Shown: positions 3,594 to 46,783, numbered from the stretch's first letter. The stretch: 64,000 bases of DNA from Clostridia bacterium (GCA_017545535.1 JAFWMS010000003.1:41991-105990); one strand, 5' to 3'. Program-made: numbers and translations. Notes: generated from the sequence alone by a model not told the origin.

Positions 3594-4034
3594 ATGAAGC
3601 TTAACGAATTACAGCCGGCCGTCGGCGCGACCAAGGCCCCCAAGCGGGTCGGTCGCGGCACCGGCAGCGGCCTTGGCAAGACCTCTGCCAAGGGCCACAA
3701 GGGCCAGAAGGCCCGCAGCGGCGCCAAGAAGAACGGATTTGAAGGCGGTCAGATGCCTCTGGCCCGCCGTCTTCCCAAGCGCGGCTTCACCAACATCTAC
3801 GCCAAGGAGTACACGGTCATCAACATTTCCGACCTGAATACCCTGAAGGATGATACGGTCGTCACGGCCGAGCTGCTCAAGCAGGAGGGCATCATCAGCA
3901 AGATCGAGAAGGACGGCCTGAAGGTTTTGGGTCGTGGCGAGCTTGCTCGTAAGCTCACTGTCAAGGCGGCGAAGTTCACCAAGACTGCCGAGGAAGCGAT
4001 CAAGGCAGCCGGCGGAAGTGTTGAGGTGCTCTAA
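3594..4034 (+). CDS. rplO: 50S ribosomal protein uL15
   Basis: 146 aa with the Gly/Lys-rich N-terminus ([26 protein letters not shown]) typical of uL15. Confidence 0.96.
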
Positions 4035-5299
4035 TGTTTACCACATTCGTCAACGCATTCAAGATCAAGGACCTGAGAAAGAAGATCCTGTACACCCTTC
4101 TTCTCATCGTGGTCTATCGTCTTGGCTGCGCCATCCCCATCCCTGGCGTCGACGCGGCGGCCTGGGCCAAGCAGATCGAAGGTCTGGCTCTGTTTGATTT
4201 CATGAGCCTGCTCTCCGGTTCCGCCCTGTCTCAGTTCACCATCTTCGCCATGGGTGTCTCGCCCTACATCACCGGTTCCATCGTGATGCAGCTGCTGGCC
4301 ATCGCCATCCCCTCCCTGGAGAAGCTGAGCAAGGAGGAGGACGGCCGCCAGAAGATCGAGCAGATCACCCGGTATGTGGGCGTTGCCCTGGCTCTCGTGC
4401 AGAGCTTTGGCATCATCGTCACCTACGGTCGCTCCATCGTCACCGGTGAGCCCCTCTGGTGGTCCTACCTGACCATCTGCGTCTGCTCCGCAGCGGGCAC
4501 GGCGTTCCTCATGTGGCTGGGTGAGCGGATCACGGAGAAGGGCATCGGCAACGGTATCTCCATGCTGATCTTCGCCTCCATCGTGAGCCGGGTCCCCGAT
4601 TGGATCATCGAGCGGTTCCGTCTGTTGTTCACCGGCGTTCAGGTGTGGCAGTTCTTCGTGGCGCTCATCGTCATCATCGCCCTGATCACCTTCGTGGTGC
4701 TCATCGAGAAGGCCGAGCGGAAGATCCCCATCATGTACGCTAAACGGGTCGTGGGCCGCAAGCTTTATGGCGGGCAGAACACCTACCTGCCCATGAAGGC
4801 CAACGCCAACGGCGTGCTGCCTCTGATCTTCGCCATGACCCTCATGCAGGTGCCCACCATGATCCTCCAGTTCTTCCCCGGCTCCGCCGTGTCCAACTGG
4901 TGGGAGAAGTACATGAGCTCCAGCGCCGCTGTGCCGGTACCCTACTATCTCATCTACTTCCTGCTGATCATCGCCTTCGGTTACTTCTACACCTCCATCA
5001 CCTTCAATCCGGTGGAGATGAGCAAGAACCTGCAGCAGAACGGCGGCTTCATCCCCGGCATCCGGGCGGGCCGTCCCACGGGCGAATACCTGGGCAAGAT
5101 CAGCAACCGCCTGACCCTGTTCGGCTCCCTGTTCCTGGCCATCATCGCCATCATCCCTACCATCGTGCTGAACTCGCTGCATGTGACCAGCATGTTCGGC
5201 GCCACCAGCGTGCTGATCATGGTGAGCGTGGCTCTGGAGACCACCGAGCAGTTGGAGGCCCAGATGCTCATGCGGCATTACAAGGGCTTCCTCAACTGA
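4034..5299 (+). CDS. secY: Preprotein translocase subunit SecY
   Basis: 421-aa polytopic protein. Its ATG overlaps the rplO stop (TAATG). Canonical position. Confidence 0.96.
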
Positions 5300-37228: not shown

Positions 37229-37450
37229 ATGGCGGAGGGTGGAAAAAAACAGGTGCCTCTGCGCCTGTCGTCCAGCCTCTATGAGGCCATCGCCGCTTGG
37301 GCGGAGGAGGACTTCCGTTCCGTGAACGGACAGATCGAGTATCTGCTCACGGCCTGCGTCCGCCAGCATAAGAAGAACGGCGGGGTAGTGCCGGAGGGGA
37401 TCTCCTCATCTGTCGTCCTGAGCGAGCATAGCGAGTCGAAGGATCTTTGA
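37229..37450 (+). CDS. Arc/RHH-type small DNA-binding protein
   Basis: 73 aa. KKQVPLRLSSSLYEAIAAWAEEDFRSVNGQIEYLL fits a ribbon-helix-helix. It is tightly coupled to the SPFH gene. Confidence 0.7.
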   Translation: MAEGGKKQVPLRLSSSLYEAIAAWAEEDFRSVNGQIEYLLTACVRQHKKNGGVVPEGISSSVVLSEHSESKDL

Positions 37451-37457
37451 ACGCAAA

Positions 37458-38007
37458 AGCTCTGCTGGTGATGGGAGTCTGCGCGCAATCTTCGGGGAAC
37501 TTGCCCTATGGGCGGCGTTCCCGCTCGCTTGCGCTCCCCAGGGGCGGACAAAAGCCCCACCGGGGCTTTTGCATCCCGCCCTCCGACTCCCTTCCGTAAA
37601 ACTTAAAAAGAAAACCACCCTCCACGGGTGGTTTTCTTTTTGGAGCTGGTGATGGGAGTCTGCGCGCAAGCTGCGGGCTGCTGGCCTATTCGGCTGGCGC
37701 AGCCTCTGGCTTGCGCTCCCCAGGGGCGGGAAAAAGCCCCACCGGGGCTTTTTCTGTCCGCCCTCCGACTCCCTTCCACAAAAACGTAAAAAGGAAACCA
37801 CCCTCCACGGGTGGTTTTCTTTTTGGAGCTGGTGATGGGAGTCTACGCGCAAGCTGCGGGCTGCTGGCCTATTCGGCTGGCGCAGCCTCTGGCTTGCGCT
37901 CCCCATGCTGCGGAAAACTGTCCACCGGACAGTTTTCTACCGCGGCTCCGACTCCCTTCCACTGAAAATCCATAAAAATAGCCACCCACAAGGGGTGGCT
38001 GTTTTTA
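37458..38007 (-). repeat. Tandem array of three ~183-bp structured modules, each ending in the tRNA-Thr 3' 20-mer
   Basis: TGGAGCTGGTGATGGGAGTC starts at 37641, 37824 and 38008 (the last is the tRNA itself). A 16-nt version lies at 37464-37479. The periods are 180, 183 and 184 bp, and the hairpin architecture is conserved. Confidence 0.9.
37972..38000 (-). terminator. tRNA-Thr terminator (bidirectional hairpin)
   Basis: Minus-sense AGCCACCC-CTTGT-GGGTGGCT followed by ATTTTTAT. Confidence 0.75.
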
Positions 38008-38084
38008 TGGAGCTGGTGATGGGAGTCGGACCCATGAACCTCGTCATTACCAATGACGCGCTCTACCAACTGAGCTACACCAGC
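38008..38084 (-). tRNA. tRNA-Thr (anticodon GGT), atypical T-loop
   Basis: Hand-folded as GCTGGTG/CACCAGC acceptor, GCTC/GAGC D stem, CGTCA-TTGGTAA-TGACG anticodon arm and ATGGG-TCCGACT-CCCAT T arm, with encoded CCA. It is 77 nt long, with C at position 55 and a 6-nt variable region. Confidence 0.75.
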
Positions 38085-38096
38085 GCTGCACCGCGC

Positions 38097-38125
38097 ATTA
38101 TAGCAAAGACGGTACAAGAATGCAA
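38097..38125 (-). promoter_or_regulatory. Promoter of tRNA-Thr
   Basis: Minus-sense TTGCAT (38125-38120), 17-nt spacer, TATAAT (38102-38097), about 12 nt upstream of the tRNA 5' end. Confidence 0.8.
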
Positions 38126-38169
38126 GCCTTTTTTTCAAATCTTAGAAAAAAAACTAAGGGAGCCGCTTT

Positions 38170-38943
38170 TTAGGCGTTCGGCTTGTTTTTGCTGTACAGG
38201 ATCCGAAGGCCGTCGATGAGGATATCCGGCTCCAGATGGAAGGCATGCCGGCAGTAGGGGACGATGAGGGGGCTGACGCCGCCGGTGAGCACGGGGCTGA
38301 CGCTTTCGCCCAGCTCCTCCTCCAGCCGGTCGATGAGGCCGTCCAGCATGGCCGCCGTGCCGATAAGGGCGCCGGAGCGCATGCAGTCGACGGTGTTGGT
38401 GCCCAAAAGCTTCGCCGGACCGTTCAGGTCGATGTACGGGAGCTGGGCCGCATGGGCGGAAAGGGCGTTCATGCTGGTCCACAGGCCCGGGATGATCATG
38501 CCGCCGATGTAGTTTCCGTTCTTCGCCACCACGGACAATGTGGTGGCGGTGCCCATGTCCACGATGGCGATGGGGGCCTTATACTTCGCCCGGGCCGCCA
38601 CCGCCGCTACGATGAGGTCGCTGCCCACGCTGGCGGGGTTGTCCATGCGGATGGAGAGGCCCGTCTTGATGCCTGGGCCAACCACCAGCAGATCGACGCC
38701 CGTGAGCAGCTTCACGGCGTTGGGGATCACCGTCTGCAGGTAGGGGACCACGGAGGAGAGGATGCCGCCCTCGATGGCCTCGATCCGCACCTTGTGCATG
38801 GTGAGGATGCCCTGGATATCCAGGGCGTACTGATCCGCCGTCTTGTTCCGATCGCTGGAAAGCCGTGCGGAAAAGACCTGCTGGTCGTCTACGATGCCGC
38901 CCAGGACGATATTGGTGTTGCCTACGTCGATGGCCAGGATCAT
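38170..38943 (-). CDS. coaX: Type III pantothenate kinase
   Basis: 257 aa with MILAIDVGNTNIVLGG and ASKHA-fold motifs (IAIVDMGTATT). Confidence 0.93.
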   Translation of the reverse strand: MILAIDVGNTNIVLGGIVDDQQVFSARLSSDRNKTADQYALDIQGILTMHKVRIEAIEGGILSSVVPYLQTVIPNAVKLLTGVDLLVVGPGIKTGLSIRMDNPASVGSDLIVAAVAARAKYKAPIAIVDMGTATTLSVVAKNGNYIGGMIIPGLWTSMNALSAHAAQLPYIDLNGPAKLLGTNTVDCMRSGALIGTAAMLDGLIDRLEEELGESVSPVLTGGVSPLIVPYCRHAFHLEPDILIDGLRILYSKNKPNA

Positions 38944-43515: not shown

Positions 43516-43589
43516 GGCGCCATAGCCAAGCGGTAAGGCACGGGTCTGCAAAACCCTCATCCCCGGTTCGATTCCGGGTGGCGCCTCCA
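43516..43589 (+). tRNA. tRNA-Cys (GCA)
   Basis: GGCGCCA/TGGCGCC acceptor, CGGGT-CTGCAAA-ACCCT anticodon arm, CCCGG-TTCGATT-CCGGG T arm, CCA encoded. 74 nt. Confidence 0.92.
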
Positions 43590-43590
43590 A

Positions 43591-43627
43591 AAACAAACAG
43601 CATCCGAAAGGATGCTGTTTGTTTTTG
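43591..43627 (+). terminator. tRNA-array terminator
   Basis: CAAACAGCATCC-GAAA-GGATGCTGTTTG followed by TTTTT. Confidence 0.85.
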
Positions 43628-43807
43628 GAGATGCCGCTCCCACATCAACCGATACGCCAGTATCCGGTTCGTTCCGGGCAGCGAAGCTGCGGCTCGGCAG
43701 TGAATGAAGCCCCAGTGGGGCTTCAGAGCCGGGCCGTGACCGAGCCCGCAGGCGAGAGCGCCTCCAAAAACAAAAACCACCCCGAAGCGGGTGGTTTTGA
43801 TTTTTTA
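43626..43807 (+). repeat. tRNA-Cys-linked structured module plus its own terminator
   Basis: It starts TGGAGATGCCGCTCC and ends GAGAGCGCCTCCA. The 17-mer GCGCCTCCAAAAACAAA is repeated at 43581-97 and 43758-74. It contains a GAAGCCCC-AGT-GGGGCTTC hairpin and an ACCACCC...GGGTGGT terminator like those of the Thr-linked modules. Confidence 0.8.
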
Positions 43808-43860
43808 GAGATGTTACTCCCCCATCGACCGGCGCGTCAGCGCCGATTTGTTCCAGACAG
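43806..43860 (+). repeat. Truncated second copy of the Cys-linked module
   Basis: TTAGAGATGTTACTCCCCCATCGACCGGCGCGTCAGCGCCGATTTGTTCC aligns with the module start TGGAGATGCCGCTCCCACATCAACCGATACGCCAGTATCCGGTTCGTTCC. The hairpin sequence is swapped but still pairs. Confidence 0.65.
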
Positions 43861-43917
43861 TGTCCGTTACAACGATCCTCTTTTTCCGTCGACAAAACGT
43901 TTCATTTTCTCAAGGGA

Positions 43918-46396: not shown

Positions 46397-46402
46397 GTAA
46401 CA

Positions 46403-46600
46403 AAATTGAATAGTCAGTCGGTGCCCTTGCCGCCCGGAGGGAGGCAAGGGGTAAAAGGGAAACAGGTGAAAGGCCTGTGCGATCTCGTCACTGTATGCGG
46501 AAGAGTCCGTCGGGCGCCAAAAGGCGCGGCCACTGGGAAACCGGGAAGGCGATGGGCGAAGCGCCGCGAGCCAGGAAACCTGCCGTCTGTCGGTACGGGA
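46403..46600 (+). ncRNA. Cobalamin (B12) riboswitch
   Basis: Conserved blocks GGTGCC (46420), AAAAGGGAA (46453), AGGTGAAA (46464) and GCCACTGGGAAACCGGGAAGGC (46529). B12 box AGCCAGGAAACCTGCC (46569-84). It lies upstream of corrinoid uptake and biosynthesis genes. Confidence 0.9.
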
Positions 46601-46783
46601 AAAGATGTTTTCCAGATCACGAGGGATTGATCGTGTACCATGCTCCCGCTTTGGGGCGCTCTTTACACGCAGTCTCTTTGCCAGCAGGTGAAGAGCTTTT
46701 TTCGTGCCGTGGGTTTCGCTGATGTACCTATTATATACATCGGGGGACGCTCGGGCGTCCCAATAAAAAATGAGGAGGAACCT

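Follow-up and report, generated by a model that had tools for sequence, protein, structure and literature searches.

Why should the end of a tRNA gene be repeated, unit after unit, in the non-coding DNA behind it? We addressed this question in a 64,000-nt stretch of DNA from a Clostridia bacterium (the window), where three non-coding units of 183 bp lie in tandem 3' of tRNA-Thr(GGT) and span 37464-38011. The original prediction described three tandem modules beside tRNA-Thr that carry its segment from the T-loop to CCA, with only 16 nt and no CCA in copy 1, and this description holds: Tandem Repeats Finder reports a period of 183 with 3.1 copies and 84% matches over 37464-38027. The repeated core, O, is the last 20 nt of the tRNA (positions 57-76), GACTCCCATCACCAGCTCCA. 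Its 16-mer GACTCCCATCACCAGC occurs four times (37464, 37645, 37828 and 38012, all on the minus strand) against 0.05 occurrences expected, and the full 20-mer with TCCA is present in copies 2 and 3 and in the tRNA itself. The units thus end in tRNA-Thr(GGT) positions 57-72 (module 1) or 57-76 (modules 2 and 3); we call the copy that ends a unit O', and the antisense copy near its start anti-O. The features of the locus are as follows.

37405-37463, minus strand: conserved distal flank (CGTTCAAAGATCC...CTCAGGACGACA), overlapping the final codons of the plus-strand RHH ORF
37464-37600, minus strand: module 1, distal and oldest, with anti-O at 37581-37591 and O' at 37464-37479 (16 nt, no CCA); covariance model R1 matches 37464-37596, minus strand, with 150 bits
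37605-37641, no strand assigned: hairpin T1, perfect 16-bp arms
37641-37783, minus strand: module 2, with anti-O at 37763-37773 and O at 37641-37660 (20 nt with CCA); R1 matches 37645-37778, minus strand, with 155 bits
37788-37824, no strand assigned: hairpin T2, 16-bp arms
37824-37966, minus strand: module 3, with anti-O at 37946-37956 (reverse complement of tRNA 54-63), then arm A, joiner GGGGAG, arm B and the sense copy O at 37824-37843 (20 nt with CCA); R1 matches 37828-37961, minus strand, with 148 bits
37969-38011, no strand assigned: hairpin T3, abutting tRNA-Thr, a 19-bp near-perfect palindrome including TCCA/TGGA, bidirectional terminator-like
38008-38084, minus strand: tRNA-Thr(GGT), found by ARAGORN and Rfam

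Precomputed Pfam calls place no integrase, transposase or RT within ~8 kb on either side of the array. A 166-aa ORF (37406-37906, minus strand) spans the array and is annotated as a gene in some public assemblies (L003, L004, L006); we rejected it as coding sequence, since the unit lengths differ by non-multiples of 3 and the substitutions are stem-compensatory, and it is almost certainly spurious. The distal flank was considered as a dispersed REP and rejected, being single-copy in the window, where the RHH ORF (plus strand) takes its last codons and stop from it. Metagenome contigs of the same species (L001-L007), which encode identical flanking proteins, carry an identical three-unit array. 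A strain variant (L008) has a distal unit without arm A, followed by a module-1-type unit in which CCA is still present, and its hairpins show compensatory changes. The T-loop of tRNA-Thr(GGT), TCCGACT, has C at position 55, where U is near-universal in tRNAs. Elsewhere in the window, a cobalamin riboswitch (RF00174, 97 bits) lies at 46402-46601 on the plus strand.

Read in the sense of the tRNA, a unit consists of a hairpin starting at CCA, anti-O, arm A, a purine joiner, arm B and O' (57-72/76). The hairpin and U-run that the original prediction placed right after CCA are seen at each CCA: a long near-perfect hairpin (16-19 bp) with flanking A and U runs, in which UCCA pairs with UGGA. The hairpins between units score as intrinsic terminators, with a G+C-rich stem followed by a U-run. 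The best conserved part of anti-O, GGGAGUCGGA, is complementary to tRNA positions 54-63 without a mismatch and so takes in the entire T-loop with its unusual C55. Positions 54-56, which are absent from O' (starting at position 57), are therefore complemented too, and the match of anti-O to the tRNA is longer than its match to O'. In the predicted fold, pairing of anti-O with O' closes a three-way junction through the helix GGGAGUC/GACUCCC and leaves the acceptor 3' strand and NCCA as a free tail. The single three-way junction proposed for all modules was recovered in each unit, on either strand, with z from -3.7 to -5.8 and 0/200 shuffles folding equally well. The proposed mosaic of arms was likewise found, arm B being common to modules 2 and 3 and arm A to modules 1 and 2.

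Two further details tie the body of the unit to the tRNA. A diverged complement of the acceptor strand sits between the hairpin UGGA and anti-O, so that tRNA end, hairpin and anti-O together make up one long palindrome. The joiner (U)GGGG repeats positions 50-53, the 5' strand of the T-stem, and the 3' half of a unit thus corresponds to tRNA 50-76, copied with an arm B insertion in its T-loop. A hairpin, AAGCCCC(R)GTGGGGCTT, is shared by Thr and Cys units (window 37552-37568, 37734-37750 and 43707-43723); the loop sequence is RGU in tRNA sense and, in antisense, ACY, which stands for Thr codons, probably by coincidence. T-box or anticodon mimicry by the arm A loop was rejected, given that the Cys unit has this hairpin too and that its triloop is closed.

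A scan with the 20-mer, taking one genome per species, returned 46 loci, of which 34 contain the identical tRNA-Thr(GGT). Nearly all are MAGs labelled Christensenellales or Clostridia, and the relatives are not the Oscillospirales named in the original prediction. Every one of the 34 Clostridia-type loci has this C55 tRNA-Thr(GGT), and the antisense motif in the units follows C55. At least 16 species genomes and 15 further metagenome contigs have units 3' of tRNA-Thr(GGT), oriented in tRNA sense, confirming the anticipated additional copies; their number varies between relatives (one to four copies, with the maximum of four in L081), and some Christensenella-like genomes have no units. The distal flank (CGTTCAGAGATCC...GGGATGACA) recurs 3' of the terminal unit in many species. 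Several loci show additional sequence: a ~330-nt insertion with ends CTGTCA...TGACAG in arm A of a Thr unit (L044 96-530), a ~230-nt insertion in a type II unit (L059), and short tandem repeats, ...GGGATGACAAGAAGAAAG..., downstream of the terminal unit (L069 ~4050-4250, L078, L085).

The structure of the units is maintained while their sequence changes. Among 26 non-identical units, standard pairs fill 98.3% of pair cells, compared with 83.4% in shuffles and 34-50% with slid partners, and double (compensatory) changes occur at 24 of the 39 base pairs; the observed values were reached by 0/500 shuffles, a result of the kind that the original prediction required. Many of these changes are whole alternative stems (e.g. 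GCCCC/GGGGC versus CUGUCC/GGACAG) reshuffled by recombination; the covariation therefore stems largely from a few recombining arm alleles, and independent events are fewer than the cell counts suggest. A further limit is that the closing helix, with the GGAG next to it, does not vary in the Thr family, and neither do the joiner GGGGAG and O'. GGAG and GGGGAG are unpaired. Larger 'type II/III' units (L049, L064, L065, L070, L072) keep these invariant parts.

The family extends beyond tRNA-Thr. Covariance model R1, built from Thr units only, matches Gly units over their full length (74.6 and 70.6 bits), a Lys unit with 28.2 bits (E 1e-5) and Cys units weakly (E 0.3-0.5; the Cys module of the window, 15.7 bits, E 0.29). 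In answer to whether such matches abut tRNA 3' ends, a point raised with the original prediction, all of them adjoin a tRNA 3' end, in tRNA sense. The Cys-linked second copy that had been reported in the window is present at 43590-43870, in the following context.

43516-43589, plus strand: tRNA-Cys(GCA), last gene of the Val-Asp-Phe-Gly-Cys operon
43580-43635, no strand assigned: tRNA-Cys-abutting hairpin, 26-nt arms including GGCGCCTCCA, the longest palindrome in the window
43627-43768, plus strand: Cys-linked module, with a diverged antisense tRNA-Cys 3' end, a direct T-arm copy, inserted hairpins and GCGCCTCCA
43762-43870, plus strand: second hairpin and truncated second Cys module

Cys units of the window and of four further loci (L112-L115) share this composition, with a diverged antisense of the last 28 nt, a T-arm copy, hairpins and GCGCCUCCA, and their number differs by one between strains. 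Downstream of tRNA-Lys(CTT) in L082, a hairpin is followed by CUCCCUCAGGGACUCGAAG (the complement of 54-71), a Thr-like arm A and O' GAGTCCCTGAGGGGGTACCA, which matches the end of tRNA-Lys at 20/20 positions from G57. At tRNA-Gly(GCC), in L066 and L045, a unit of ~220 nt occupies the spacer between the Gly and Cys tRNA genes, a spacer of 3 nt in the window; it carries anti-O GGGGCUCGAA and O' GAGCCCCGUCU.., and its CCA-abutting hairpin has no U-tract; the operon-internal Gly hairpins do not score as terminators. The O' of the operon-internal Gly unit is mutated and without CCA. At each of the four tRNAs (Thr, Gly, Lys, Cys) the sense and upstream antisense copies match the local tRNA, and all four kinds of unit are predicted to form closed multibranch folds. 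The closing helix changes with the tRNA: GGGAGUC/GACUCCC for Thr, GGGGCUC/GAGCCCC for Gly and GGGACUC/GAGUCCC for Lys.

This distribution bears on the suggestion that the units are MITE-like transposons with inverted ends that mimic a tRNA target. Each unit is indeed flanked by tRNA-end copies in imperfect inverted orientation; however, across the window and ~400 kb of related loci copies occur only beside the cognate tRNA, the unit ends differ from one neighbouring tRNA to the next, and no transposase was found. We regard this reading as hardly credible, and that part of the original prediction is set aside.

A more serious alternative is suggested by the behaviour of phages, which in relatives use the same site. 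A viral contig (L016) carries GGGTCCGACTCCCATCACCAGCTCCA with a terminator, an attP, beside a tyrosine integrase (PF00589, 27.5 bits), and in two loci (L015, L086) AT-rich prophage DNA is joined to the core, followed by hairpin and unit; at the L015 junction only the 5' part of the unit is left before host genes. A phage-like scar follows the O' of a unit in L049, and an integrase fragment lies beside tRNA-Cys in L108. The repeated 20-mer is thus a phage att core in relatives, and the integrases targeting the tRNA-Thr end that the original prediction envisaged there do exist. Direct GTACACG-AAAAA-GTACACG repeats beside the att core, found in one prophage end and two scars (L015 3460-3480, L049 ~500-560, L056 ~150-180), are likely integrase arm-type sites. 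Another viral contig (L014 1-1937) carries eight tRNA genes, including a tRNA-Thr(CGT) with the same 3' 20-mer.

The units could then be miniature integrative cassettes, non-autonomous and mobilized by a tyrosine integrase in trans, that accreted serially through crossovers in the core; anti-O and O' could form a folded single-strand mimic of an att site. The identity block does span T-loop to CCA, the array is polar, with a degraded distal copy that lacks CCA, and the phage attP, junctions and scars all fall at this core or beside these tRNAs. Arrays of integrase att sites or CIME-like elements resemble the locus in their direct T-loop-to-CCA repeats, in having the newest copy beside the tRNA and in a core used by phages in relatives. 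They differ in that the units are 183 bp long, geneless and unrelated to phage att arms, and are conserved and structured, with an antisense copy of the core. BLAST against phage and plasmid records gave no relevant match, and unit motifs in viral contigs amount to chance matches (coding regions, group II introns) and the L015 host flank, so that in phage, plasmid and viral collections a unit appears only as host flank. No integrase lies within ~8 kb of the array, phage P arms are unrelated to the unit, and homologous bodies stand beside tRNAs for which different integrases would be required. Identity begins at position 57, inside the T-loop, which would leave the T-loop overlap mismatched. 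Of the accretion reading in the original prediction, the identity of core and att core stands, and the units themselves, homologous across species and tRNAs, absent from phage, plasmid and viral collections and changing copy number by homologous crossing-over, do not bear it out; we judge cassette accretion unlikely. The view of the modules as mere prophage leftovers fails on the same grounds, the units being neither phage leftovers nor MITEs. Repeated tRNA ends are hence not always prophage scars, even where phages integrate.

How copy number changes can be seen in pairs of related loci. The single unit of L087 equals the proximal unit of L074 up to about position 83 and the distal L074 unit from position 58, and the flanks of the two loci are 95.7% identical: L087 is a hybrid of both L074 units and lost one unit by homologous unequal crossing-over. 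L113 likewise equals L112 less one Cys unit. Arrays therefore grow and shrink through unequal homologous recombination between units, and these crossovers within the body speak against the cassettes, as do L083 (7944-8260) and L089 (841-1240), where four to five tandem units of ~80 nt made up of the O' 16-mer and the conserved distal flank have amplified too.

In another alternative, the units are a neutral by-product: template switching at the CCA-abutting and next hairpins would yield inverted and direct copies of the tRNA end in alternation, in the manner of tandem inversion duplication, and unequal crossing-over would multiply the product, with no RNA function. Tandem inversion duplications and quasi-palindrome template switching occur in Salmonella and E. 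coli, and they share with the units a direct-inverted-direct order of segments joined at palindromes. The layout direct-hairpin-inverted-hairpins-direct is found at four tRNAs, the hairpins are near-perfect palindromes including CCA, and templated correction can imitate compensatory change. Wobble pairs show no strand bias, and no associated gene or promoter was found. By contrast, the segment duplicated here has just 20-28 nt, structures are kept from one species and one tRNA to another, and bodies are common to different tRNA loci and species. Unpaired motifs are invariant, O' is kept to exactly position 72 although the Thr anti-O lacks its complement, and a non-terminating hairpin is retained in the operon-internal copies. 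A purely neutral origin seems fairly unlikely to us; both it and integrase-driven accretion are live alternatives.

Rfam, searched at gathering thresholds and at E <= 10, finds the tRNA alone, and RtT (RF00391) has no match at gathering (45 bits) or at E <= 10 on 37300-38300. The statement in the original prediction that no RNA family matches is therefore accurate for Rfam, but the design is that of the E. coli RtT RNA and the tyrT repeats. These repeats and rtT RNA have been known since 1978-1991 and have no accepted function or origin. According to Egan & Landy 1978, Rossi et al. 1981 and Bosl & Kersten 1991, rtT RNA is reportedly released by processing of the tyrT transcript. Two papers trace the RNA to a single repeat unit and give its mode of action as unknown (10.1101/2024.07.17.603846; PMC3318445). 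In MG1655 the tyrT locus has a period of 178 with 3.1 copies and four RtT matches, one of them in the tyrT-tyrV spacer, with rttR and tpr annotated; E. coli RtT copies score 133-138 bits and number 1-10 per genome. In the RF00391 consensus, GgGaaGG pairs with the tRNA-Tyr-derived CCuuCcC to close the structure, and the tail ccaCCACCA is unpaired.

The likeness between the two systems is extensive. Both consist of ~180-bp tandem units (178 versus 183) in 3.1 copies 3' of a tRNA gene, on the tRNA strand, with units also in a tRNA-tRNA spacer (tyrT-tyrV; Gly-Cys) and with copy numbers that vary between strains. In both, a unit ends in the last ~19-20 nt of the upstream tRNA with CCA (16 nt in module 1), and in predicted folds a 5' complement closes a multibranch structure while the acceptor strand and CCA are unpaired; a predicted read-through fold also swaps the tRNA 3' end for the distal copy in both. 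Sequence similarity is undetectable in either direction (R1, for its part, has no match in the E. coli tyrT locus), and the hosts are Clostridia, not Enterobacteria. The Clostridia units further differ in the perfect 19-23-bp hairpin that starts from each CCA, none being visible in the E. coli tyrT spacer, in an anti-O that spans the whole T-loop, in one family serving at least three or four different tRNAs, and in having no tpr-like ORF. A motif, CGAGCG-NN-AGCGAGA, shared at 13/15 positions by Cys units (L112 ~3880-3900) and E. coli RtT (L116 ~1640-1660) was not judged significant. Comparisons with primer-binding-site/retroelement systems, bridge RNAs, omega-RNA guides, integron attC sites and casposon-type duplications were rejected, the defining protein or motif being absent and none of these analogies explaining the paired sense and antisense copies.

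The question of strand can be approached from the Gly units. Lying in the spacer between tRNA-Gly and tRNA-Cys behind a CCA hairpin that lacks a U-tract, they must be transcribed, in tRNA sense. Wobbles in the closing helices of L049 and Lys units also favour tRNA sense. A promoter scan found no promoter-like site on either strand, and G-U versus A-C counts (15 versus 11) show no strand bias in a test that has no power, the terminator hairpins being equally symmetric. The opposite case is that of an antisense (anti-tRNA) small RNA made from the window plus strand, its 5' end complementary to the tRNA-Thr 3' end, with C-rich unpaired motifs and each unit ending in a terminator. The plus strand does fold better in 30/36 units, by a mean of 2.5 kcal/mol and with more G-U pairs, and a U-run hairpin follows every unit on that strand. 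Yet no promoter was found for it, the inner units have nothing but a terminator ahead of them, the UGG complementary to CCA is missing from terminal units, and both the Gly units inside a tRNA operon and the closing-helix wobbles count against it, as does the E. coli precedent, RtT being in tRNA sense. We consider an antisense RNA very improbable, and the anti-tRNA variant raised in the original prediction is not favoured; Gly context, wobbles and RtT precedent together make tRNA sense the favoured orientation.

On balance, the units are somewhat better explained as RtT-like tRNA-trailer elements, transcribed in tRNA sense, than in any other way, and we hold this view with moderate confidence. 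It corresponds to the third reading of the original prediction, a structured RNA family bearing a tRNA 3' end, which fits best: the family is widespread, covarying and always in tRNA sense, one set inside a tRNA operon must be transcribed, and the design matches E. coli RtT. Transcription of the units would proceed by read-through, or as an operon spacer, from the tRNA promoter, and may be rare, given the strong terminator-like hairpin before most Thr units. Processing would release each unit as a separate RNA of ~140-160 nt whose 3' end resembles that of a tRNA, as reported for E. coli rtT. In a read-through precursor, the T-loop and 3' end of the tRNA itself may be bound by anti-O and its 5' acceptor strand by the distal O', and the unit could act in cis on tRNA 3'-end formation. 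For Thr, Lys, Cys and E. coli Tyr-RtT, minimum free energy (MFE) folds of tRNA, hairpin and unit join the 5' strand of the tRNA to the distal O', and its T-loop and 3' end to anti-O; these are thermodynamic predictions that ignore co-transcriptional folding and tRNA tertiary structure. For Thr, the precursor MFE is -136.6 kcal/mol versus about -117 for separate folds, and the operon-internal Gly unit, whose O' is mutated, shows no swap of the tRNA 5' strand to the distal O' in its MFE. These predicted precursor folds suggest that a unit, in a read-through transcript, may influence in cis how the tRNA 3' end is formed.

RtT, as far as Rfam shows, has been treated as an enterobacterial oddity tied to one tRNA. 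The units described here are a second, sequence-unrelated family of the same design in gut and rumen Clostridia, strongly covarying and serving several tRNAs with ends that track each of them, which argues that the design itself is selected, or is made by a general mechanism. It also brings comparative data that can now be used: constrained nucleotides, a predicted 3'-end swap and a disarmed O' in operon-internal units. More tentatively, and as a possibility we rate as doubtful, RtT and the units may be two members of a widespread unrecognised class, defined by a structured body with sense and antisense copies of the local tRNA 3' end and by 3'-end exchange. If so, the class would be a cis-acting switch or quality control of tRNA 3'-end formation, or alternatively a decoy for tRNA-end-recognising enzymes or phage integrases, and could re-target itself to new tRNAs by templated copying.
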